Source: Streptomyces sp. SID3343
GTDB lineage: Bacteria > Actinomycetota > Actinomycetes > Streptomycetales > Streptomycetaceae
Assembly (NCBI RefSeq): GCF_009865215.1
Contig: NZ_WWJX01000689.1
Coordinates: 6,565 to 30,564 of the forward strand
Length of the DNA stretch: 24,000 nucleotides
Reading direction: 5' to 3'
The notes below the pieces were generated by a model, which did no database searches, had not been told where the DNA came from, and saw nothing but the letters and a program-made list of their open reading frames with translations. Made by a program: the position numbers and the translations under genes. Shown one piece after another: positions 12,950-23,979 of this stretch. Each line of letters opens with the position of its first letter. The stretch's first letter is position 1.

Positions 12950-13200
12950 GCCGATCTCACCGACGCCTCCCACACGGTCGTCGAATCCGCGGACCTGCCA
13001 CCCATCCGCTTCCACGACCCGCGACACGGCGCCGAAACGATTCATCCGGCCGACGGCGGCGACAGAGGCAGGCCAGTTCATGCCCGGGCACTTCACATAC
13101 GCCTGCACCACAAACGCCTAGGCGAGCGTGCACAGGATGGTCACCGCCACGTCGGCCGATGCCGTCGCCGAACAGTTCATCCCCCACAGGAGCAAAAAGA
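12950..13200 (+). pseudogene. tyrosine recombinase C-terminal remnant
   Basis: The frame of ORF 12629 reads ...ADLPPIRFHDPRHGAET (box II H-x-x-R). After a frameshift it reads FMPGHFTYACTTNA*ASVHRMV, where LGH has become PGH and a TAG (13129-13131) sits where the catalytic Tyr is expected. The N-terminal roughly 250 codons are absent. Confidence 0.5.
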
Positions 13201-13280
13201 CCGCCGGGCACACCTCGGGCACCGTAAGGTCCCGAAACGCGCACCGGCGGTCTCTGTATTCGACATAACCGCAACGTCAG

Positions 13281-13369
13281 CGGAGGACGTGGGATTCGAA
13301 CCCACGAACAGAGTCACCCCTGTTAGCAGTTTTCAAGACTGCCGCCATCGGCCACTAGGCGAGTCCTCC
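13281..13369 (-). tRNA. tRNA-Ser (anticodon UGA)
   Basis: 89-nt cloverleaf read by hand: acceptor GGAGGAC/GTCCTCC, anticodon arm GCAGT-CTTGAAA-ACTGC, long variable arm, T arm GTGGG-TTCGAAT-CCCAC, discriminator G. CCA is not encoded. Confidence 0.9.
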
Positions 13370-13370
13370 A
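13329..13370. repeat. att site (int-proximal), 42-bp direct repeat copy 1
   Basis: GTTTTCAAGACTGCCGCCATCGGCCACTAGGCGAGTCCTCCA is identical to 22428-22469. It equals tRNA-Ser nt 1-41 plus one upstream nt. Confidence 0.9.
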
Positions 13371-13391
13371 CACCCGTTCTGACCTCATCAC

Positions 13392-14510
13392 TTACCCAGC
13401 GGACGAGCCCGGAGGCTCCTCATCTGGCCGCAAATTGGCCGCACGGGTGTTTGAGACATCCTCGGAGAGCTTCTGGCTCCACGCGTCCGTCTCGTTCTCA
13501 AACAGGTGCGCGTAGGTCTTCATCGTGATCGCCGGAGACTGACCGAGAATCCGGGCGACCACCGTGACCGGCGCGCCCTTCGAGATTAGCAGCGAGGCGC
13601 ACGTGTGCCGCAGGTCGTGCACCCTCGTGTCCGTCAAGCCCACCGCAGCGAGCCCCGACGTCCATCCGGCACGGCGGAACTCTGCGGAGCGCGGAGGCCG
13701 ATCGTGGTCACCCCAGGGGAAGATCAGGTCTCCCGGCTCCTTGCCCTCCATCAGGTCGGTCAAGTCCGGCACCAGGACCGCCGGCAGGGGAACGGTCCGC
13801 CGGCGGTGCGTCTTGGTGTCCGTCAGGTGGAACCGGCCCCCGACTTCGGACTGTGTCCGGAGGACATCGACCCGACACCGCACGAGGTCGATGTCCCCAG
13901 CGCGCAGGGAGATACCCTCTGCCCACCGCAGGCCGGTATAGGCGAAGAACCGCACGAGGAGGCCCCACGTCCCCCCGATCTTCGTAGCCAACTCTTCCAC
14001 TCGATCCACCCTCAACGGCATGACCACACGCTTGGTGGACAGCGCCGGCAGATCCACGGTCCGAGCAGGGTGGCGCACCAGGCGCCCGCCCTTCACGGCG
14101 TCATCGAGGATGCGGCCAAGCAGGTGTCCGCACTGGCGGGTACGCGACGAGGACAGTTCGTCATCGAGACGCCCGATCCAGTCGGCCACGCTGTCGTAAT
14201 CGATCTTGTTCAAGGGGATGTCACCCCACTCGGGTACCAACTGCGACCGCAGCAGAGACGCCACCCATTCCTTGGTCTTGGGCTTTGCCCAGCTCTGACG
14301 CGCGAACCACGCTTCCGAGAACGCTCGAAACGTGATCTTGCCGCGCGCCGGATCAACCCACTCCCCACGTATCTGCCGAGACTGCTGTTCCGTGATCCAG
14401 GCAGCCGCTTCGCGCTTCGTGTCGAAGGTCCGAGAACGCTCCTTGCCGTCCGGACCCCGATACCGAGCCCGCCACTTGTCCCCGCGCTTGTTGATGTGTC
14501 CAGACGCCAT
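13392..14510 (-). CDS. int: tyrosine-type site-specific integrase
   Basis: MASGHINKRGDKWRARYRGPDGKERSRTF (SAM-like N-terminus) ... HDLRHTCASLLI ... LGQSPAITMKTYAHLF (R-H-R-Y catalytic set). ATG 14510 overlaps the xis stop as ATGA. The track ORF extends to 14672, but that extension overlaps xis. Confidence 0.9.
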   Translation of the reverse strand: MASGHINKRGDKWRARYRGPDGKERSRTFDTKREAAAWITEQQSRQIRGEWVDPARGKITFRAFSEAWFARQSWAKPKTKEWVASLLRSQLVPEWGDIPLNKIDYDSVADWIGRLDDELSSSRTRQCGHLLGRILDDAVKGGRLVRHPARTVDLPALSTKRVVMPLRVDRVEELATKIGGTWGLLVRFFAYTGLRWAEGISLRAGDIDLVRCRVDVLRTQSEVGGRFHLTDTKTHRRRTVPLPAVLVPDLTDLMEGKEPGDLIFPWGDHDRPPRSAEFRRAGWTSGLAAVGLTDTRVHDLRHTCASLLISKGAPVTVVARILGQSPAITMKTYAHLFENETDAWSQKLSEDVSNTRAANLRPDEEPPGSSAG

Positions 14511-14719
14511 CAGGCCGCCACCCGTCCCCCGAGCCAGACCCGGATGTCTTCCGGGTCGAAACGCAGCCAGCGGCCGATCTTGTAGGCCGCCGGACCCTCG
14601 TTCTTGTAGCGCCACGCGTAGAGCGTCGTGACCTCTACGCCGAGGTAGGCCGCCGTCTCCTCTGCCGTCCAAAGGACGTCCGGCAGCTTCTTTCGAGTCC
14701 TCACAGTTCCTCCGTCCAC
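14510..14719 (-). CDS. xis: excisionase-family helix-turn-helix protein (Xis)
   Basis: 69 aa. LWTAEETAAYLGVEVTTLYAWRYKNEGPAAYKIGRWLRFDPEDIRVWL fits the MerR-like HTH_17 excisionase fold. It lies immediately upstream of and coupled to int. An alternative GTG at 14704 would give GTGA coupling to the upstream ORF. Confidence 0.75.
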   Translation of the reverse strand: MDGGTVRTRKKLPDVLWTAEETAAYLGVEVTTLYAWRYKNEGPAAYKIGRWLRFDPEDIRVWLGGRVAA

Positions 14720-14958
14720 CGAACGCCGCAGGTCTCCGCGATCACCGTCCGAAGGGAAGCGCCGTCCGCCCCCGACACCATCGGAAGCGAGTCCTCACAG
14801 ACGAAGACATGTCCGCCGTCGAAGAACCCGACCGGAACCATCGGAAGGTCACCGCGGCCACATATCAGGCAGGCCAAGCCGTCGAGCTGGGCAGGGCCGA
14901 CCACCCTGGCCGAAGCCGAGGCGATCGACGCGGCGAACAGTTCGAGCTGTCCGTTCAT
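14701..14958 (-). CDS. hypothetical protein (85 aa)
   Basis: ATGA coupling with the tra stop (14955-14958) and the same strand as the tra-xis-int block. No recognisable motif other than scattered Cys residues (CLICG...CED). Confidence 0.5.
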   Translation of the reverse strand: MNGQLELFAASIASASARVVGPAQLDGLACLICGRGDLPMVPVGFFDGGHVFVCEDSLPMVSGADGASLRTVIAETCGVRWTEEL

Positions 14959-16376
14959 ATGGCAGCCACCGTCCCGGAGGTGTACTCCGCCTCAGCCGCC
15001 CAATCCACCAGCGTTTGATCAGGCGTGTACGGGAACCGCACGCGCACCGGCGCGGGATCGGTCTCAACGGTCAGGTAGCCGATGCCAGCCGTTGAGTACT
15101 GGTTGGCTTGACTTGCCGGAGGGATCAGGTGGCAAGCGGCCCCACGATCGGAGGCACCCTCACCAAGAACCATGTCCGTCTCGACATCCGAGGCCAGCCG
15201 AAGGCCGATCCGAGTCGGGAACCAATCCCTCTCCGACGCGTACTGCTTGAGACCGCTCTGTACGAGCGCGAGCACGAACATTCCGACTGATCGCCCTTGG
15301 GAGAGCAACAGGAGGAGATGCGCGCTGGTCTGTTCCCGCCGCTTCTTGTCCGTGTCGAGAGCACCGAGCGCGGCGTACTCATCGATCGCGAGCATGATCA
15401 AGGGTTGAGCTTTCGAGACCACGAAGTCACGACCGGGCAAGTCCTTGCGCCGCTCCAGCTCCTCTACGAGATCGGACAGCAGGGCCGCCCAATCCTCCGG
15501 CCGGTAGGCCACCTGCTGGAACACCTCCGAGCACGACCGGATCTCTTGCCGCTTCGGGTCGATGCCGTAGAGGAGCGCCCGACCCATGGACACCCAGGGC
15601 CGCAGGTGGTTGACCACGCCCCACAGGACGGAGCCCTTGCCGGACCCGGTCCCGCCGACACAGAGCGTGTGCGAAAGGGGCAGGGAGACGGGAACGCCGT
15701 CCTCCCCGAGCGCAGCGTTCCAGCGGAACAGGTCACCGGTCACGGGCCAATCGGAGATCACCGACGTCGGGGCAAGGGGATCGGATATGCGAGCTGTCCA
15801 CTCCAAGAGCCCAGGCCCCGCATCACGGGCACTGACCCGAGCCACAGCCCAGTGATGACGCAGCTCATCGAGCGTGTCTGACGCCAGGTAGCGCGCGGAC
15901 GGCACGCCGGCCACCGGGCGAAACGCGAAGACCGGACCCGCAGCAGAAGGGCGGACCGAGACTAATTCGGGCAGCACAACGACCGGCTCAGCCTCAGCCA
16001 AGCGCACCATCAGTCGGGTGTGCTCCTCCTTGGAGAGCGAGGCCCGCCACACTTCGTCACCCGTGGGACCAGGCCGCCCCTGATCCAAAGCCAACCCAAG
16101 ACGTGGGAGCAGATCCGCCCACCGGTCGAGGACGAACTCAACTACCGAGGCCCCGACTTCGCCGTGAACAAGTTCGAGGAGCCGCCGGCGACGCGCACGC
16201 TCCCAGACCCGAAATGCCCAGAGACCGGCGAACACCAAGGCCACGCCGCCACAGACAGGCGCCAGTGGCACCCCGGCAAGCATCAGGGCGAGGAGACCAA
16301 GCAGCGCGAGCACAGTCCGACGGACCGAACGCACCCGCATCGCCTTCCAGATGTAGAACGCGATGTAGCGACGCAT
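14955..16376 (-). CDS. FtsK/SpoIIIE-family conjugal DNA translocase (TraSA/TraB-like)
   Basis: 473 aa with N-terminal hydrophobic segments, Walker A GGTGSGKGS, and Walker B-like LIMLAIDEYAALG. This is the single-protein dsDNA transfer determinant typical of Streptomyces-type elements. Confidence 0.9.
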   Translation of the reverse strand: MRRYIAFYIWKAMRVRSVRRTVLALLGLLALMLAGVPLAPVCGGVALVFAGLWAFRVWERARRRRLLELVHGEVGASVVEFVLDRWADLLPRLGLALDQGRPGPTGDEVWRASLSKEEHTRLMVRLAEAEPVVVLPELVSVRPSAAGPVFAFRPVAGVPSARYLASDTLDELRHHWAVARVSARDAGPGLLEWTARISDPLAPTSVISDWPVTGDLFRWNAALGEDGVPVSLPLSHTLCVGGTGSGKGSVLWGVVNHLRPWVSMGRALLYGIDPKRQEIRSCSEVFQQVAYRPEDWAALLSDLVEELERRKDLPGRDFVVSKAQPLIMLAIDEYAALGALDTDKKRREQTSAHLLLLLSQGRSVGMFVLALVQSGLKQYASERDWFPTRIGLRLASDVETDMVLGEGASDRGAACHLIPPASQANQYSTAGIGYLTVETDPAPVRVRFPYTPDQTLVDWAAEAEYTSGTVAAI

Positions 16377-16714
16377 CAGGCGCCCACCGACTTCTTAGCG
16401 GGCACCGAGCCGTCGACCGGAGTCAGACCCTCAGCCTTCACCGTCCAGTTGACGCCGTACGTGTCCTTGCCGGACCAGCCGTCAATCCATGCCCGCCCCG
16501 TCAGCCGGTGGGGCATCATCAGGGCCAAGTCGGATACCGCGCCCGGCAGCGTGAGGCGCATCGCCACCGCCTTGGAACCACCGGCAACCATCACGTTCAC
16601 CTCTACGTGAAACGCGACTTCCCCAGTCCGCTTGTCAGCCTGCTCCCGGGTGGCCGCAGCCATCGGGAAGACGGTTACTTCAGAAAGCACGATCGGAAAA
16701 CCTTCGACACTCAC
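16376..16714 (-). CDS. hypothetical protein; Pra-like (replication/integration/excision activator) candidate by position
   Basis: 112 aa, ATGA-coupled to tra and divergent from the GntR/KorSA-like gene, which is the pSAM2 pra position. Sequence similarity was not verifiable here. Confidence 0.5.
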   Translation of the reverse strand: MSVEGFPIVLSEVTVFPMAAATREQADKRTGEVAFHVEVNVMVAGGSKAVAMRLTLPGAVSDLALMMPHRLTGRAWIDGWSGKDTYGVNWTVKAEGLTPVDGSVPAKKSVGA

Positions 16715-16763
16715 CGTTACTCCTCAGTAGTCACAAGCTCGTCGGTCGGGCGAACCCGGCCGG

Positions 16764-16846
16764 AGGTACCTCTAAACGTAGGTCGAGAGGTAGTACGTCT
16801 GGTCGAACCTTTGACAGGTTAGACAGCAGGTAGTACCTCTTGTCAA
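16764..16846. promoter_or_regulatory. kor/pra divergent control region with three GGTA(N)TACC-type operator repeats
   Basis: AGGTACCTCT (16764-16773), AGGTAGTACGTCT (16788-16800) and AGGTAGTACCTCT (16828-16840). The last is bracketed by TTGACA (16811-16816) and TGTCAA (16841-16846). Confidence 0.45.
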
Positions 16847-16874
16847 GGAAATACGTCGTTCGAGTGGAGGAAAA

Positions 16875-17711
16875 TTGACCGGCGAGGAGACCTCAACAGG
16901 ATCAAAGGTTCCCAAATGGGAAGGAATCGCCGAGATTCTGCGAGTGTGGATCTTGGATGATCAGTACAAGCCAGGCCAGGCCCTGGAGAGCGAAGCAGCC
17001 ATCGCGAAGGAGTTCAGCGTCTCGCGGCCCACGGTGCGCCAGGCGATTCAGAAGCTCATTGGTGAGGGGCTGCTGACCGTTGCACATGGGCGAGGAACCT
17101 TCGTCCGCCCTGTACCGGACAGAACGACTCTCGCGATTGGCTCACCGAGCCCGGAAGACCTCATCTCCCCCGGCTTCGACATCGAGGCGTCCGAGTGGGA
17201 GCGCGTGCCCCCGCCGGTCGGGTGGAACCTGCCGGCCGAGGACCTGGATCCCATTCAGGGTCTGGTGCACAGGCCGGGGCGAGAGGAAGCGAAGCTTCTG
17301 CGCATCACCATGCGCGATCTGATCGTTACGCGATTCACTCACATGCGGCTCCGGCGGAGTCAGGACATGATCGTCGTCACGTCGAACATCCCTCTGACCG
17401 TGCTGCACGACGAGGAGAGCGGGCCATTTTCGCCCGAGGAAGTCATCGATCGGGGAGGGATCTACGCCGAACTTGCGAGGAAGCACGGGCCCGTCCGCTT
17501 CACGACGAGCGTTGTTGCCCGGATGCCCGGAGCCGACGACGACGAGGTATTCGGACTTGTTCCCGGAACACCGATGCTCTCCATCCGGCGGTTCATGCTG
17601 GATAGTCACGGCCAAATCTTGGAACTTGTCGAAGTTGACGCTCCGGCCGACCGATTCGACGCGCAACCCGAGACCGCGTCCGACCTTGGCAAGGCCGTTC
17701 TTCGCCTGTAG
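16875..17711 (+). CDS. GntR-family transcriptional regulator (KorSA-like, HutC/UTRA-type)
   Basis: 278 aa. TTG start 6 nt after GGAGG. Winged HTH ESEAAIAKEFSVSRPTVRQAIQKLIGEGLLTVAHGRGTFV with a long effector-like C-terminal domain. Confidence 0.85.
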   Translation: MTGEETSTGSKVPKWEGIAEILRVWILDDQYKPGQALESEAAIAKEFSVSRPTVRQAIQKLIGEGLLTVAHGRGTFVRPVPDRTTLAIGSPSPEDLISPGFDIEASEWERVPPPVGWNLPAEDLDPIQGLVHRPGREEAKLLRITMRDLIVTRFTHMRLRRSQDMIVVTSNIPLTVLHDEESGPFSPEEVIDRGGIYAELARKHGPVRFTTSVVARMPGADDDEVFGLVPGTPMLSIRRFMLDSHGQILELVEVDAPADRFDAQPETASDLGKAVLRL

Positions 17712-17735
17712 TCAAGCTAGAATCTCGACAGCAGG

Positions 17736-17770
17736 AAGCCCCGGTCCACGGGTATTACGGACCGGGGCTT
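17736..17770 (+). terminator. hairpin terminator after the GntR gene (possibly bidirectional)
   Basis: AAGCCCCGGTCC (17736-17747) pairs with GGACCGGGGCTT (17759-17770), followed by TGTCGTG. It sits between convergent genes. Confidence 0.55.
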
Positions 17771-17810
17771 TGTCGTGCCGCATCTTGTAGGCAAACCGAC
17801 GTGAGTTGCG

Positions 17811-18032
17811 CTAAACGCTCAGCGCCGCCGTAAGGACTCGCCACGAGGCCGCCGGGACGGACAGGTGACCGAGGGCGGGAACCTTGCTGTCACGCACCGG
17901 AACGAGGGCCGGGAGGCCGCCGGCCGCCTCCACGCAATTGCCCCCTTCTTGGTTGCTGTAGCTGGACTTGCGCCAGGCGTAGCCGTTGCTTACGGCCTTG
18001 ATCGTCACGGCTGTTGCCTCCCCATACGTCAC
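17811..18032 (-). CDS. DUF397 domain-containing protein
   Basis: 73 aa with the family signature WRKSSYSNQEGGNCVEAA...VPVRDSKVPALGHLSVPAASW. Confidence 0.8.
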   Translation of the reverse strand: MTYGEATAVTIKAVSNGYAWRKSSYSNQEGGNCVEAAGGLPALVPVRDSKVPALGHLSVPAASWRVLTAALSV

Positions 18033-18825
18033 GAATCATGTCGAGTGACACCCGCGACGGAAGCGCAGATGCTCGCAGGTGATCGTAGGTCATGGCGTAC
18101 GCCTTGACCTCTTCCGGATCTTCCATGAGCCGCCCATCGTGCGCACCTTCTGTGTAAGCGACTTCGCGCCCGTCCGGCATCGTCAGGAGAGTCAGCGAAC
18201 CCCCCATCGATGGGTGTTCCCCCTCTGCGAACAACAGCACCTGCACTGTGACGTTTTCGCACGCCAGTATCCGTGTCATCTGTTCCCGCATGACCGCGCG
18301 GCCCCCTACAGGGCGCCGGATCACTGCTTCGTCCAGCACGACCGTGTATGCAGGCGCATTCGGGCTCGCGAACAGCTCTTGTCGGTCGATTCGCAGATGT
18401 ACTCGTTCTTCTAGCTGTGCCTCACTGCGCAGACTGTGTCCAGTTCGCAGCGTCGCTCGCGCGTAGTCCGGTGTTTGCAGAAGTCCGGGCACGGCATGTG
18501 CCGCGTACTCCCGAATGCCAATGGCAATAGCGCTGTACCGAATAAAGAGCTGCAACCAATCGGGATACCTCACCCGATCGAGGTGCACCCATAAGTAGTT
18601 CAGCAGGTCATCAGCGCCCAGCAGCGCATCTAATTGTGCAGCCATTTGCCGTGTGACCGGACTCCCCGACGCGCGCTCAATCTGCGTGATGCGCGATGGA
18701 TCAGTGTGGACCATCTGGGCCAACTGGGCTTGCGTGAGCCCTCGTGCTTCACGAAGTCGGCGCACCCGGTTGCCGAACAGTTTTGCGACCGACTCAGTGG
18801 GATCGATTGGCGGGACCAAGATCAT
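17890..18825 (-). CDS. XRE-family helix-turn-helix regulator with DUF5753-like C-terminal domain
   Basis: HTH LFGNRVRRLREARGLTQAQLAQMVHTDPSRITQIERA, then LLQTPDYARATL ... VQVLLFAEGEHPSMGGSLTLL, typical of DUF397 partners. The last roughly 45 codons (Arg/Gly/Gln-rich) overlap the DUF397 gene by 143 nt. The start is ATG 18825 or TTG 18819. Confidence 0.8.
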   Translation of the reverse strand: MILVPPIDPTESVAKLFGNRVRRLREARGLTQAQLAQMVHTDPSRITQIERASGSPVTRQMAAQLDALLGADDLLNYLWVHLDRVRYPDWLQLFIRYSAIAIGIREYAAHAVPGLLQTPDYARATLRTGHSLRSEAQLEERVHLRIDRQELFASPNAPAYTVVLDEAVIRRPVGGRAVMREQMTRILACENVTVQVLLFAEGEHPSMGGSLTLLTMPDGREVAYTEGAHDGRLMEDPEEVKAYAMTYDHLRASALPSRVSLDMIRDVWGGNSRDDQGRKQRLRLAQVQLQQPRRGQLRGGGRRPPGPRSGA

Positions 18826-18938
18826 CCTTCCTGATTTCTGTGGAAGTAAGGAACGACCGCCTTTCGACCGTACGCCGCGCGACCGATGCTGTCAGGGAGT
18901 GGCCGAATCAGCACCTACGGCAACCGGAAGGTAGCGCC

Positions 18939-19199
18939 ATGCCTAAGCACCTGTTCCCCCTCGTCCAGCAGTGGACTGGAGACGAGGTTGACGAACTCAT
19001 ACGGCGCGTCGACACGGTCCTTGTCCGGGACGAACGCAGTGGGTTGGAAGGTCAGTTGCTCGCTCGCGACGGGCAGCGCGTGACCTTGGCAAAGGGTGTG
19101 AGCACCTTCCGGTTCCGTTTGGACGACCTTCGGGTGCTCGTCTACGTCGACGAGGCGCCGCAGGAAGGGGACGCGGATGTCGACGTTCCGCGAGGGTGA
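18939..19199 (+). CDS. hypothetical protein (86 aa)
   Basis: Internal ATG of track ORF 18744..19199, preceded by GGAAGG at 18926-18931 (MPKHLFPLVQQW...). First gene of a plus-strand operon divergent from the XRE gene. Confidence 0.5.
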   Translation: MPKHLFPLVQQWTGDEVDELIRRVDTVLVRDERSGLEGQLLARDGQRVTLAKGVSTFRFRLDDLRVLVYVDEAPQEGDADVDVPRG

Positions 19200-19380
19200 C
19201 TACGTGGAGCCGATCGACCCGGCCGCGCAACAGGTCCGGCGTCCGGGTCAAATCCTCATGGCTCAGCCGCTTCCCAATACCGGCCAACGGCTCACGGTGC
19301 AGCCGTTCGACGGAGGCGTCATGTGGACCATGCCGGCCGACAGAGTTCAGCCCGCAGAGCGGCCGGCTCCGACTCAGTGA
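19177..19380 (+). CDS. hypothetical protein (67 aa)
   Basis: ATG start overlapping the previous gene by 23 nt. The composition is plausible (MSTFREGDYVEPIDPAAQQV...). No motif recognised. Confidence 0.4.
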   Translation: MSTFREGDYVEPIDPAAQQVRRPGQILMAQPLPNTGQRLTVQPFDGGVMWTMPADRVQPAERPAPTQ

Positions 19381-19392
19381 GAGGCAAGCGCA

Positions 19393-19725
19393 GTGTGGCG
19401 AGAGTTCGTGCCGACCATCACCTACGGGGACGGCACCATACGCGATGGTGACCCGGTCGTGTGGTTAGACGAGCGGGGTATCCCGCAGGAAGCCGACGAG
19501 GAGCACCCTCACGGGGTCCTGATCGGCCGCACAGCGGACGAGCCACCGCGAGCCATCGTCCGGCCTCACACGGCGCACGACAGCTCGGGAGCGATCAAGG
19601 AGTGGCGCGCGCCCTTCGACCGAATCGAGCTTGACGCGTTCCGCAAGAAGGCCGCCGCCATCATCCGTCGCGCGCGCACGCACTACTGCCCGGATGGCGT
19701 GATCGTGCACACCTACCGGGAGTAG
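19393..19725 (+). CDS. hypothetical protein (110 aa)
   Basis: GTG start 12 nt after the previous stop. Balanced amino-acid composition unlike the Arg/Pro-rich shadow ORFs. No motif recognised. Confidence 0.5.
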   Translation: MWREFVPTITYGDGTIRDGDPVVWLDERGIPQEADEEHPHGVLIGRTADEPPRAIVRPHTAHDSSGAIKEWRAPFDRIELDAFRKKAAAIIRRARTHYCPDGVIVHTYRE

Positions 19726-19912
19726 CCGACCTCAGCGACCCCCAACGTCACACCTACGAACTTCCGTACGGCCGTTGGTCGTTGAACCGATCGGCGGTAC
19801 GGCACTGATCGGCCCCGATGCGTGATGAGGAAGGCGCGCATCGGGGCTGCACAACAGGCGCCACTGATCGGCGCCGCACGTGTGGAAAGTCCGCAACCGG
19901 TGACAGGAGGCA

Positions 19913-20098
19913 GTGATGAGGTGTCCGGACTGTGGAGGGAAGGCAGAACTCAAGAACGGGACATGGACGTGCAGCAGTGGGTGCGGCTGGATTCTCACTG
20001 AGAACATCTCGCCCGCAAGCGTGACCTTGCTTGTCGCGTTCGCGTGCTTGTCCTTGTGCGTCCCGAGTGTGCGCCGACAAGGCGCCGGGGCACACTAG
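19913..20098 (+). CDS. small zinc-ribbon protein with hydrophobic C-terminal segment (61 aa)
   Basis: Strong RBS AGGAGG 5 nt upstream of the ATG. CPDCGG...CSSGC ribbon followed by VTLLVAFACLSLCV. Confidence 0.55.
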   Translation: MMRCPDCGGKAELKNGTWTCSSGCGWILTENISPASVTLLVAFACLSLCVPSVRRQGAGAH

Positions 20099-20103
20099 GG
20101 AAC

Positions 20104-20352
20104 ATGAGTGGTGAACCCGAGGTGGTTCGGTCGCCCCGTGTGACCCGTGTGGGTCATTCAGTGCCCGAGCCCTACTACACGTCGCACCGGTGCCCCAGGT
20201 GCGGATCACAGGTGGACGGGCTCCACGGGCGTTGGGCATGCGGACGCTGTGGGGAGTGCTCTCCGTACAAGGACCCGCCCGGCGGTTGGCGCGCGGACCC
20301 TGGTTACGACGAGCCCCCGAAGCAGCTACCCAAGCGCATCCGCAAGAAGTAG
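20104..20352 (+). CDS. small zinc-ribbon protein with basic tail (82 aa)
   Basis: Internal ATG 20104 of track ORF 20044..20352 (MSGEPEVV...). CPRCGS...CGRCGEC ribbon with a C-terminal KQLPKRIRKK. Confidence 0.5.
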   Translation: MSGEPEVVRSPRVTRVGHSVPEPYYTSHRCPRCGSQVDGLHGRWACGRCGECSPYKDPPGGWRADPGYDEPPKQLPKRIRKK

Positions 20353-20359
20353 GCACCAC

Positions 20360-20392
20360 CAGCCCCGATCGGAGCCCATCCGGTCGGGGCTG
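20360..20392 (+). terminator. hairpin terminator of the small-protein operon
   Basis: CAGCCCCGATCGG / CCGGTCGGGGCTG (13 bp, one G-U) with a 7-nt loop, followed by TGTGCTGTGCTGC. It starts 8 nt after the stop codon. Confidence 0.5.
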
Positions 20393-20708
20393 TGTGCTGT
20401 GCTGCTCGCGTGCAGAGTTTCTGTACCGGATCAAGGGGCGCCCCAGGGGGCGCCCGGCCGGCCCACGTGCCCGGCACCGGCTCGCCTTAGCCTTCGGCAC
20501 GGCGGGCCGGACCGGGCAAGGAGCCGGCCACGTCACAGACTCGCATGCGGACAGCATCAGGAGACCGGGGCAAAAACCGGGTAGCGGGGTGATCTCAGGT
20601 GGGACGAGACTGCGCGCTGATCTCGGGTGCGCCACCGAGGCCGCCGTCTTTGCTGACCGGCGTTCGGTCGAGTCCCACAGAACAAACAAGGGCCGCGCGT
20701 CGAGCTGG

Positions 20709-22253
20709 TCATGCATGGGGCTGACCCACCGAGAGCCACGGCGCCGCATCGCCAGCTTCCAGCAGCATCCGCCGGACCCGAGCCGCATCGTCCTTGTACT
20801 CCTGACCCACGACGACCCACCGAAGCACCTCCAGATTCTCAGAGGTCCCCGCGGATTGGTTGTGCTCTCTCCGAACGGCCCGCAGCTCCCGGAAGGTGAG
20901 GCCCGACCACCCCGGACGCGCAAGCACCGCAGGACGCGGCCGAGTCCAACGCATCTTGCACGGACGAGCCGGCACCGCAGCCCGCCCCTTGGTCAACCCC
21001 CGACCGTCCTTACGTACGCGTGGCAGCACCACAGGTCGTTCCTTCGTCCAGCGCACCGGCCCCGAGTGCGGACGCGCCGGCACAGAATCACGACCGCGAC
21101 CAGGACGTGACTGTGTCAGCACGTGACCCCGGAAACCCCATCCTTTGTGCGCACGGCCCGTACACGACCGGCCGCCCGAACAGTTTGCCGAGCACTGCAA
21201 GTCCATGGCCGCGCCTTCGGCCAGGCGGTGATGCAGCCGAGCCGGCGCCGTCTTCTCAGTCTTGGGCAGGTCCGCGCCGAGGTCTTTCGCGGCGTACGTC
21301 GTGAGCTTCCCGAGGTAGCCGGCCACGACCCGGGCATGGGACCGACCGCGCCGAGTCGGATCGACGTATCGCACGTCCACTTGAGGCCCCCAGGAGAGCG
21401 ACACGGCCTCACCGGTCGAGTGGTCAACGACGTCGCTCCGTACGGCCGTTGCAGCCGCAGCCAGGGCCGCGCAGAAGGTGTCCACGTCCGCCGGCACGGA
21501 GGGCAGCCGCAGGAGACAGTGAAAGTGGATCGCGCCGCGTGCCTGCCACTCCCGAACCACGAGGTAATCAGGCCGATCCCCGAGGAGTCGCGACCACCGT
21601 TGAAGCGTCGTGTGCCACAGCCGGCCACTGTGCAGGTTGAACAGCGTCTGTCGGTCGTAGTCGTACGTGCGCATGTCCACAGGCACGCCACGCAGCGAAT
21701 CGCCCACCAGATGATGCGCGCCGCACCGGCACCGCCGAGGACTACGACGTTGACCAGGACGTGCTTTGGTGCCAGCTTTGGGCACGTGATGGACCGCGCC
21801 GAAGCTGGGAGCCGTCAGCGTCACGAAGACGAACACGGCCGAGGGGTCGACGTTGAGCGCGCCCGTCCGGATCAGCCGGGACGCGTCGCCCTTGTACAGC
21901 TTGGAGCAAGACGGGCATTCGGAGGCCCGCCGGTTGCCGCAGCGAATCGGCACGGTTCGTGTGGTGCCGTCCGCGAGCAGGCCCATGGCGGTCAAGGGTC
22001 GTTGGCAGGCGAAGTCCTCAACCGCCCGCCCCGCCGCCGCCCGACGCTGCGCAAGCGCGTCGGATTCCTTTTCCCAGTCAGCTTGACCGAAGCCACCAGG
22101 CCGGCCACCCTCGGGAGGTGACGACGCGGTGACAGGGGATGGGTGCAACATTCCTCGGCTCCGTAACGAGCCGCCGCCGCTGTAACGGGGTCGGCTCAGT
22201 CGTACGAAGACGAGGTCAGAACGGGCCGGATACTGGCCGCAGATTGGCCGCAA
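20709..22253 (-). CDS. RepSA-like replication initiator (HUH rolling-circle type)
   Basis: PIRCGNRRASECPSCSKLYKGDASRLIRTG, HUH motif GAIHFHCLLRL, Tyr motif YLGKLTTYAAKDLG, GFRGHVLTQSR. The N-terminal start is uncertain, with in-frame candidates downstream of 22253 such as 22151. Confidence 0.85.
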   Translation of the reverse strand: MRPICGQYPARSDLVFVRLSRPRYSGGGSLRSRGMLHPSPVTASSPPEGGRPGGFGQADWEKESDALAQRRAAAGRAVEDFACQRPLTAMGLLADGTTRTVPIRCGNRRASECPSCSKLYKGDASRLIRTGALNVDPSAVFVFVTLTAPSFGAVHHVPKAGTKARPGQRRSPRRCRCGAHHLVGDSLRGVPVDMRTYDYDRQTLFNLHSGRLWHTTLQRWSRLLGDRPDYLVVREWQARGAIHFHCLLRLPSVPADVDTFCAALAAAATAVRSDVVDHSTGEAVSLSWGPQVDVRYVDPTRRGRSHARVVAGYLGKLTTYAAKDLGADLPKTEKTAPARLHHRLAEGAAMDLQCSANCSGGRSCTGRAHKGWGFRGHVLTQSRPGRGRDSVPARPHSGPVRWTKERPVVLPRVRKDGRGLTKGRAAVPARPCKMRWTRPRPAVLARPGWSGLTFRELRAVRREHNQSAGTSENLEVLRWVVVGQEYKDDAARVRRMLLEAGDAAPWLSVGQPHA

Positions 22254-22427
22254 GACCCCCAGCGACGTCGGGAAACGCCGCGAAGTGACGCGAGATCAGC
22301 GATCACTCAAAGGGGGTCGCGGGGAAGGCTCGAAACGACCGTGACCAGCACCGGAAGGGGTTCCAGTGCTGGTCACGGGTGGGGCTTCTAAGGGGAGTCC
22401 TCACGGGCCCGGCTTGACCGGCCCACG

Positions 22428-22469
22428 GTTTTCAAGACTGCCGCCATCGGCCACTAGGCGAGTCCTCCA
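22428..22469. repeat. att site (rep-proximal), 42-bp direct repeat copy 2; orphan 5' half of tRNA-Ser
   Basis: Identical to 13329-13370. Beyond nt 41 the sequence diverges (ACCGT instead of ACTGC) and there is no T arm, so it is not a functional tRNA. Confidence 0.9.
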
Positions 22470-22698
22470 GTGCCGCAGCCGGTGTCGGTTGCGGGCGGCA
22501 TCAGTCTCTCACGAGCGATGTCGCGGATCACTGGGGATTCGGTACCGACACGTGTTCGTGTGCGACGGCCGCGGTCGGTCGGGCCGGTCGCGGGTGGTGG
22601 CTCCTCCGGGCGAGCCGACGAATTCCGTGACGGACAACCGGTCGGTGTCGGTCGGTCGGTGAGTCGGACCCGCTGGAGGAGCCGTCACATGCCGGCTG

Positions 22699-23979
22699 TC
22701 AGTTGTCGCCGTCGCGCTGGCCCAAGGTGACGTCCGTGGTGGCTTCCTTGCCGTCGCGTTGGTAGGTGACCTTGACCTTGTCGCCGGGGCGGTGGCTCCA
22801 GATCTCGCTGAACAGGTCTTCGTAGGCGCCGATCGAGCGGTCGCCGAGCTTGGTGATCACGTCGCCGGCCTTCAGGCCCGCCTTGGCGGCCGGGCCGTCG
22901 GGGGTGACCGGGGTCTGGCCGTTGGTGGACTGGGCCAGGATCTGCGCGCCGGCTCCCGTGTAGCGCGAGTCGGGCAGGATGCCCATCTGCGCGTAGACCG
23001 GCTTGCCGGTTTTGATCAGAGTGTCCGCGACCCACTTGGCCTGGTTGATCGGGATCGCGAAGCCCAGGCCGATGCTGCCCGACTCCTGCTGCTGGCCGCC
23101 GAACGGCGACTGGCCGCCGCTGTTGGGTACCGAGCGGATCGCCGAGTTGATTCCGATCACCTGGCCGTCTGCGTTCAGCAGCGGGCCGCCGGAATTGCCC
23201 GGGTTGATCGACGCGTCGGTCTGGAGCGCGTTCATGTAGGAGACGGACTGCTCGTCGCCGGAGGCCACCGGGCGGTCCTTGGCGCTGACGATGCCCGTGG
23301 TCACGGTGCTGTCGAGGCCGAACGGAGCGCCGATCGCGACGACCGGGTCGCCGACCGCGACCTTGTCCGTGTCGCCCAGCGTCAGCGGCTGCGCGGTGGC
23401 CGGCATGTTGTCGACCTTGACGACCGCGAGGTCGTAGCCCTGGGCGCGGCCGACAATCTTGCCCGGCAGCGTCTTGCCGTCGGAGAACGTCACCGTCAAC
23501 TCGCCGCCGTCGGCCGCCAGCGAGACCACGTGGTTGTTGGTGAGGATGTGGCCTTCCTTGTCGAACACGAAGCCCGCGCCCGTGCCCGTCTGGCTGCCCT
23601 GGCCGGAGCCGCCCTTCTTGGTCTTGATCGTCACCGTGCTCGGCACGGCCGCCTTCGCGATGCCCGCCACGCTCGTGGGCGAGCGGTTGAGCGAGGCCGG
23701 GTCGACCGGCGGCGAGGCCGAGTTGACCCCGACCGAGGCCGGCTTGTCGTCGCGGTCCACGATCCACGCGCCCACACCGCCGCCGACACCGCCCGCGAGC
23801 AGCGCGGCCACCACGGCCGCGACCACGATCGACGACGGGCGACGCTTCGGCTTGGGCGCGGGAACGTAGCCCGGGTAACCCGGGTAGCCCGGGTACGCAC
23901 CTGTGTGGCCGTACGGCGGCACCGCGCCGGCGCCCCCCGCACCCGGCTGAGCACCCGGCGCGGCGAATGCCGCGGGCAC
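22699..23979 (-). CDS. HtrA/DegP-like trypsin-family serine protease with PDZ domain
   Basis: Pro/Gly/Tyr-rich N-terminus, TM segment IVVAAVVAALLAGGVGGGVGAWIV, catalytic His (TNNHVV) and Ser (GNSGGPL), and a C-terminal PDZ-like segment. GTG at 23979 is the first start, but the frame stays open to 24000, so the gene may begin outside the window. Confidence 0.9.
   Translation of the reverse strand: MPAAFAAPGAQPGAGGAGAVPPYGHTGAYPGYPGYPGYVPAPKPKRRPSSIVVAAVVAALLAGGVGGGVGAWIVDRDDKPASVGVNSASPPVDPASLNRSPTSVAGIAKAAVPSTVTIKTKKGGSGQGSQTGTGAGFVFDKEGHILTNNHVVSLAADGGELTVTFSDGKTLPGKIVGRAQGYDLAVVKVDNMPATAQPLTLGDTDKVAVGDPVVAIGAPFGLDSTVTTGIVSAKDRPVASGDEQSVSYMNALQTDASINPGNSGGPLLNADGQVIGINSAIRSVPNSGGQSPFGGQQQESGSIGLGFAIPINQAKWVADTLIKTGKPVYAQMGILPDSRYTGAGAQILAQSTNGQTPVTPDGPAAKAGLKAGDVITKLGDRSIGAYEDLFSEIWSHRPGDKVKVTYQRDGKEATTDVTLGQRDGDN

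Follow-up and report, generated by a model that had tools for sequence, protein, structure and literature searches.

A pSAM2-type integrative and conjugative element with a 5'-half tRNA-Ser(UGA) attachment block in an Embleya-like actinomycete

We analysed a 24,000-nt stretch of DNA from Streptomyces sp. SID3343 (contig NZ_WWJX01000689.1, positions 6,565 to 30,564; the whole stretch is called the window below) and found a 9.1-kb actinomycete integrative and conjugative element (AICE) of the pSAM2 type at positions 13371-22469. Our preferred reading, to which we give a probability of roughly 85%, is that this element integrated through the anticodon loop of a chromosomal tRNA-Ser(UGA) gene by means of an attP site that carries the 5' half of the gene, leaving behind a chimeric tRNA gene that would be expressed at least partly by read-through from the integrase gene. 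The 5'-half geometry is real and conserved in this clade, but it is a known minority arrangement; an AICE lineage with this geometry is apparently undescribed, and the element is not a new kind of system.

Anatomy of the element and the duplicated tRNA segment

All the modules of a pSAM2-type AICE are present according to profile matches, i.e., a tyrosine integrase (Int), an excisionase (Xis), a RepSA-type replication initiator and an FtsK/SpoIIIE-type translocase (Tra). Table 1 lists these genes together with the att blocks, the candidate regulatory signals and the chromosomal neighbors. If translated in full, the longest RepSA ORF (514 aa, from a TTG start) would run into both the P-arm repeat and the inverted repeat; judging from its length against a 481-aa homologue in Embleya sp. 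NBC_00896, the true start is probably near position 22154.

Table 1. Coordinates of the element's genes, attachment-site features and flanking chromosomal features in the window
Feature	Position	Strand	Details
Chromosomal intrinsic terminator of the tRNA	13191..13255	-	long GC hairpin followed by UUUUUG; -57 kcal/mol, z = -4.75
Intact regenerated tRNA-Ser(UGA)	13281..13369	-	ARAGORN; Rfam RF00005
att identity block, int-proximal junction (tRNA nt -1 to 41)	13329..13370	-	exact 42-nt direct repeat
Inverted-repeat arm GATGAGGTCAGAACGGG in the int-tRNA spacer	13373..13389	.	17 nt, 94% complementary; conserved in Embleya elements
Tyrosine integrase (Int), 372 aa	13392..14510	-	PF00589 1.5e-17, PF22022; 100% match over 372 aa to protein P0121; stop codon 22 nt upstream of tRNA +1
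Arm-type repeat GCGGCCAATTTGCGGCCAG inside int 3' end (P' arm)	13424..13442	-	2 matches in the window vs 0.01 expected
Excisionase (Xis), 69 aa	14510..14719	-	PF12728 HTH_17 1.1e-10
FtsK/SpoIIIE-type conjugative DNA translocase (Tra)	14955..16376	-	PF01580 8.1e-07
GntR/UTRA regulator, KorSA-like	16875..17711	+	PF00392 2.2e-18, PF07702
HTH_31 + DUF5753 regulator	17890..18825	-	PF19054 1.1e-51
RepSA rolling-circle replication initiator, longest ORF	20709..22253	-	PF20199 8.4e-56
Partner inverted-repeat arm in the P arm	22209..22225	.	pairs with 13373-13389
Second arm-type repeat GCGGCCAATCTGCGGCCAG (P arm, upstream of repSA)	22233..22251	-	conserved in NBC_00888 (L002) and NBC_00896 (L011)
Perfect hairpin (18-bp stem, 4-nt loop) with UCGUUUC, about 50 nt after the stub and before repSA	22339..22378	-	fold z = -3.8
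att identity block, far junction (displaced native 5' tRNA-Ser fragment with native upstream region attached)	22428..22469	-	
-10 hexamer of the candidate native promoter	22503-22508	-	predicted to drive only the stub now
Candidate native tRNA promoter	22503..22531	-	-35 GTGATC (22526-22531), 17-nt spacer, extended -10 TGAGAGACT
HtrA-like S1C protease, chromosomal	22699..23979	-	PF13365 and PDZ domains; conserved upstream neighbor of tRNA-Ser in the lineage
Predicted attP junction			GAACGGGTGT + 42-bp block + CGTGGG

The only tRNA in the window is tRNA-Ser(tga), which ARAGORN places at 13280-13369 and Rfam RF00005 at 13281-13369 (52.5 bits as compared to a gathering score of 29); both programs put it on the minus strand, in agreement with the original prediction. 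The exact 42-nt direct repeat, with a spacing of 9,099 bp, is the only long repeat of the region, and on the tRNA strand it reads T followed by GGAGGACTCGCCTAGTGGCCGATGGCGGCAGTCTTGAAAAC. According to the Rfam alignment, the anticodon stem is formed by nt 28-32 and nt 40-44 around a loop of nt 33-39 (CUUGAAA; 13331-13337 in the window). Taken together, the repeat and the alignment confirm that the duplicated segment corresponds to tRNA nt -1 to 41, its last 2 nt lying past the loop in the 3' strand of the anticodon stem. The predicted distance of 22 nt between the int stop codon (TAA, 13394-13392) and tRNA +1 holds as well, with the spacer (13391-13370) and both genes on the same strand. Neither ARAGORN nor Rfam calls a tRNA at the far copy, which carries nt 1-41 and is the 5' fragment it had been taken for; as it contains nt 1 of the tRNA, it counts as an end rather than an internal fragment.

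The plasmid, viral and metagenome collections yielded no free attP form of the element. A tblastn search of the plasmid collection with Int returned no match above 34% identity, and no free circular form was found there. In viral contigs there were 0 matches to the 19-mer of the fragment-side junction, GGCAGTCTTGAAAACCGTG (block end plus P arm, which occurs in attR and in attP). Nine metagenome matches to the same 19-mer (L012-L020) were examined as possible att sites and rejected, as all are unrelated sequences with no tRNA; several of them have flanking sequence in common and may represent a recurring coding motif.

We note two further features of the element. UCA codons make up 19/2,579 codons (7.4 per 1000) in the element ORFs vs 6/2,854 (2.1 per 1000) in the flanking host ORFs, which probably reflects the lower GC content of the element (60-66%); 9/19 of the element UCA codons are in orf389 (19754-20923), whose frame is uncertain. 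The interval between the KorSA-like gene and the DUF5753 gene contains a 19-nt segment (17833-17851, AGGACTCGCCACGAGGCCG) with 84% complementarity to nt 2-20 of the tRNA and hence to both att blocks; it may be due to chance, many similar pairs being listed.

Empty sites, related elements and attP architecture

Using HtrA homologues, we found two genomes with empty sites, Embleya scabrispora (L005) and Embleya sp. NPDC127516 (L006). Both have htrA and then, about 105-115 nt later, an intact tRNA-Ser(tga) without any element. NPDC127516 (empty) and Embleya sp. NBC_00888 (occupied) form a near-isogenic pair for comparison. The 110 nt upstream of the NPDC127516 tRNA are identical to the fragment side of the NBC_00888 element at 105/110 positions and to its int side at 61/110, and the 150 nt after tRNA nt 41 are identical to the intact-tRNA side at 144/150 positions and to the fragment side at 98/150. 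When the window is compared with the two empty sites, the corresponding numbers are 82-84/110 (fragment side) and 64-66/110 (int side) for the upstream 110 nt, and 108-111/150 (intact side) and 89-91/150 (fragment side) for the 150 nt after nt 41. The regenerated gene is therefore made of an element-supplied 5' half and a chromosomal 3' half: tRNA nt 42-89 and all DNA downstream are chromosomal, and nt 1-41 lie inside the att block. Such a chimera had been proposed from the window alone, and both empty-site alignments and the flank identities agree with it. The same comparisons support the placement of the element upstream of the intact tRNA and the claim that the native upstream region, after the htrA stop codon, now adjoins a 41-nt stub. 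The original prediction had also allowed that an empty attB might extend the block to the tRNA 3' end; the empty sites confirm a block of nt -1 to 41.

The HtrA-like protease matches a Streptomyces sp. SID3343 protein at 100% identity and shares 82-88% identity with Embleya proteins. Together with the htrA-tRNA-Ser synteny, the latter groups the source, labelled Streptomyces sp. SID3343, with Embleya, and its genus name is probably out of date. In three Embleya genomes (L005:67-1606, L006:62-1612 and L011:1-1140), a Prim-Pol gene and a 207-aa ORF are conserved some 9-10 kb upstream of htrA; they may be a relic of another integrated element.

A scan of genomes with the integrase identified two relatives in complete genomes, Embleya sp. 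NBC_00896 (CP108776.1, L011; 72% identity) and Embleya sp. NBC_00888 (CP108784.1, L002; 65% identity). In both, tRNA-Ser(tga) is found about 22 nt after the int stop codon on the same strand, and both junctions have the 5'-half geometry. NBC_00888 contains an 8.8-kb element between copies of the identical 42-bp block; in NBC_00896 the block fragment is 12.2 kb away from the intact tRNA, and an insertion sequence (IS) is found within the element. A partial Logan contig (L022; int 70% identical) contains int, 22 nt and then the tRNA block, where the contig ends. Alignments show that nt 1-41 are invariant among the elements and that the 3' half is host-dependent, including a compensatory change in the variable-arm stem. 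As for the IS, it carries a DDE_Tnp_1 transposase (L011:18351-19225), and the greater length of the NBC_00896 element (12.2 kb vs 8.8-9.1 kb in the others) comes from the IS and other extra DNA.

These genomes also bear on the reading that the arrangement is an artefact that came about through chance repetition, faulty assembly or a later inversion of an element that had integrated in the classical way. All that speaks for such a reading is the draft status of the 30.5-kb source contig. Against it, the repeat is an exact 42-mer with a chance expectation of zero (in a scan of the NBC_00896 locus, 0.00 matches to the 41-nt tRNA part of the block are expected with 3 mismatches allowed), the identical geometry recurs in one additional contig and in two complete genomes that were assembled independently, and the empty-site sequences rebuild attB exactly from the two outer flanks. 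We consider an artefact effectively refuted, with a negligible probability.

Outside this group, four integrases with 41-43% identity (L007, L008, L009 and L021) all show the classical layout (4/4), with the tRNA on the strand opposite to int and its 3' end 13-22 nt from the int gene. Their targets are tRNA-Arg-ACG (L007 and L008), tRNA-Lys (L009) and tRNA-Arg-CCU (L021). One more contig (L010) has a tRNA-Met upstream of int, which is compatible with the classical layout, the contig being too short to tell. L007 is a 9.9-kb AICE with Tra (FtsK_SpoIIIE), RepSA, Xis and Int, and its 43-nt repeat extends from the 3' end of tRNA-Arg to the first nucleotide of the anticodon loop. The survey of related integrases thus finds 5'-half att geometry in the Embleya sisters and classical geometry in the outgroups, which makes the 5'-half geometry a derived trait of the Embleya tRNA-Ser clade.

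The arm-type repeat has the consensus GCGGCCAA-NN-TGCGGCCAG, with one copy in the int 3' end and one upstream of repSA. The repeat is also found, as GCGGCCAANNTGCGGCCAG, in the int 3' end of two classical outgroups (L007:11057-11075 and L008:11078-11096), where it encodes AAxxRP, although these integrases are only 41-42% identical and use tRNA-Arg in the classical orientation. On this distribution, the arm motif predates the reversal of the target. Going by coordinates, the int-end arm site is followed by the anticodon loop 87 nt (window) or 96 nt (L007) further on. The attP layout (an arm site in the int 3' end, about 90 bp with the tRNA segment that restores the gene, and an anticodon-loop core) is thus conserved across both geometries, with only the orientation of the target gene reversed. 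Over the last 33 codons of int, identity at third codon positions is 0.75-0.85 vs 0.51-0.59 in the whole gene, which fits an overlapping function of the int 3' end at the DNA level. We also considered whether the P arm holds a second, degenerate copy of the tRNA 5' end (GAGGACTCCCCT) and rejected this as not significant (40/500 shuffles score as well).

As both repeat copies are identical, any crossover position within the 42 bp is formally possible. We propose that the tyrosine integrase joined attP to the tRNA-Ser(UGA) gene of the chromosome and that the 7-nt anticodon loop is the most likely place of the exchange. In attP, tRNA nt -1 to 41 stand right behind the int stop codon and read in the direction of int. 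Upon integration, the chromosomal 3' half and its terminator stay in place and the element brings a new 5' half; the native 5' half and its candidate promoter end up 9.1 kb away as a stub. The symmetric anticodon stem-loop would have allowed the orientation flip.

Transcription across the chimeric tRNA gene

All five genomes, whether occupied or empty, have the candidate native promoter at position -40, and we infer from its -35 and extended -10 that this region next to the fragment acts as a promoter. On the other side of the element, the chromosomal tRNA terminator is the first terminator downstream of int, and no hairpin with a U-tract was found in the int-tRNA interval. Any int transcript must therefore traverse the tRNA, and the absence of a terminator between int and the tRNA fits read-through. 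The original prediction had derived tRNA expression from int read-through or from a promoter in the int 3' end, with decoding of a rare codon tied to element transcription as the outcome; these consequences are plausible.

No convincing element promoter emerged from consensus and relaxed scans of the DNA preceding the chimeric tRNA. The consensus scan for promoters and terminators at both junctions returned nothing; it says little, since in this high-GC actinobacterium the scanner also missed the native candidate. The relaxed scan gave one conserved native candidate and one weak element candidate inside the arm repeat. The latter is the only -10-like hexamer shared by all three elements (CAATTT/CAAATT at -68), and it has a poor -35.

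In one alternative the geometry is the same, but the tRNA is transcribed constitutively and independently of int regulation from a dedicated element promoter, situated within the final ~100 bp of int or within the 22-nt spacer. Besides the conservation of the hexamer in three elements, the final ~33 codons of int and the spacer show much higher conservation at silent sites than the rest of int, actinobacterial promoters often have no recognisable -35, and elements that displace a promoter may be expected to supply one. However, the conserved motif is the arm-type repeat, which is also present in the classical-geometry relatives that need no tRNA promoter, so its conservation is explained without a promoter; as the motif predates the flip, the conservation of the int 3' end is likewise no evidence for one. 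In addition, no hexamer closer than 60 nt to tRNA +1 has both -11A and -7T, and there is no counterpart of the native extended -10. We regard a dedicated element promoter as a real possibility, though somewhat short of an even chance.

Our best guess remains that at least part of the tRNA comes from the 3' end of int-containing transcripts; RNase P would release it, and the transcripts would stop at the terminator that follows the tRNA in the chromosome. A contribution may also come from a weak promoter within the conserved 3' end of int. The int operon is normally kept low in pSAM2-type elements, so read-through alone might give little tRNA.

Alternatively, the regenerated tRNA may be poorly expressed or silent, with UCA covered by another copy of tRNA-Ser(UGA) or through wobble by another tRNA-Ser. 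The promoter scans found no promoter, and UCA is rare in the flanking host genes (6/2,854 codons), as this idea would have it. But all elements examined bring a 5' half without a single deviation from the native one, and the block reaches no further than nt -1, which indicates selection for a working gene; streptomycete genomes usually have a single tRNA-Ser(UGA), and no other Ser tRNA is known to read UCA efficiently. A silent chimeric gene is therefore quite improbable.

In its strongest form, the read-through model would have the promoterless chimeric tRNA made only as the tail of int transcripts. If this gene were the sole copy, decoding of UCA in the host would then depend on the AICE's regulation of int-containing transcripts, and the orphan promoter would make a 5' tRNA-half RNA and/or read into repSA. 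If this were true, host translation and element activity would be reciprocally wired; we hold the strong form to be unlikely.

Regarding repSA, the hairpin in the P arm is identical in NBC_00888, whose P arm is nearly identical overall. From its fold, the hairpin could be a terminator or the RepSA double-strand replication origin. As a terminator it would stop transcripts from the native promoter (in the integrated state) or from int (in the circular state) before they reach repSA, and it would thereby insulate repSA from the orphaned native promoter.

Comparison with known integrative elements

AICE reviews describe attB as overlapping the tRNA 3' end (PMC2440964, PMC3218068), in line with the statement in the original prediction that 3'-portion blocks are the norm for tRNA-targeting elements. 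The block found here (nt -1 to 41) departs from that description, which is a descriptive generalisation and not a mechanistic requirement. The same prediction had held the 5'-half geometry to be remarkable, and this part largely falls in view of precedents. Islander contains a 5' tDNA fragment in 159 of 3,919 islands and a 3' fragment in 3,760 (PMC4383910), and its configuration filter explicitly permits a 5' fragment upstream or a 3' fragment downstream (PMC4383910). 5'-distal recombination is described as 'considerably less frequent' in PMC6563490, where Zhao & Williams 2002 (J Bacteriol 184:859) is cited as a bacterial example of 5' geometry, along with several archaeal cases. The third precedent is pTN3 of Thermococcus nautili, with a 41-bp 5'-half tRNA-Leu block and a minimal site of nt 2-44, for which site-specific recombination was shown in vitro and whose regenerated tRNA gene is 'separated from its original promoter' (PMC5495485).

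The case is a comparatively documented pSAM2-type element with a reversed target (empty sites, two sister genomes and classical outgroups), and it slightly widens the picture given by AICE reviews, which cover only 3'-end integration, with general principles unchanged. It shows how an integrase lineage can reverse the orientation of its target and yet retain its attP architecture. The element is also a convenient system for a question that concerns all 5'-fragment islands, i.e., how a regenerated tRNA gene without its promoter is expressed.

Like pSAM2-type AICEs (pSAM2, SLP1, pMEA300), the element is about 9 kb long and has a tyrosine Int, an HTH_17 Xis, a RepSA initiator, an FtsK/SpoIIIE Tra and a GntR KorSA-like regulator, with attP directly downstream of int and a tRNA gene as the target. 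Unlike the pSAM2-type AICEs in the reviews, its identity block is the 5' half of the tRNA. The gene order is also permuted: here RepSA occupies the far end, followed by Tra and then by Xis-Int, whereas the order in the L007 element is Tra, RepSA, Xis, Int.

By the Islander definition (PMC4383910), the locus is a tDNA island with a full tDNA, a cognate end fragment in the same orientation and the island between them. PF00589 is found in the interval, the length of 9,099 bp is within the 2-200 kb range, and the 5' fragment (22428-22469) is upstream of the minus-strand tRNA (13369-13281), a configuration that Islander allows (PMC4383910). The element thus resembles the 5'-fragment tDNA islands (PMC4383910; Zhao & Williams 2002, as cited in PMC6563490) in carrying the 5' tDNA portion, in having the displaced 5' fragment upstream of the regenerated gene and in using a tyrosine integrase; the promoter-like native region stays with the displaced fragment. 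No AICE or pSAM2-type member of the 5'-fragment class is described in the sources consulted.

pTN3 (PMC5495485) shares with the element a 41-bp 5'-half block and a regenerated tRNA cut off from its original promoter. It differs in its archaeal host, in its SSV-type integrase gene, which is split by integration, in not being conjugative in the AICE sense and in having no arm-type sites.

Finally, the element is similar to the anticodon-loop sublocation class (Williams 2002, as outlined in PMC4383910) in that one end of its identity block is at the anticodon loop, with the symmetric anticodon stem around the 7-nt loop flanking the proposed crossover, whose position within the loop we infer. Unlike in that class, the block runs toward the 5' end of the gene and not toward its 3' end. 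The L007 block, from the 3' end to the loop, is its mirror image.
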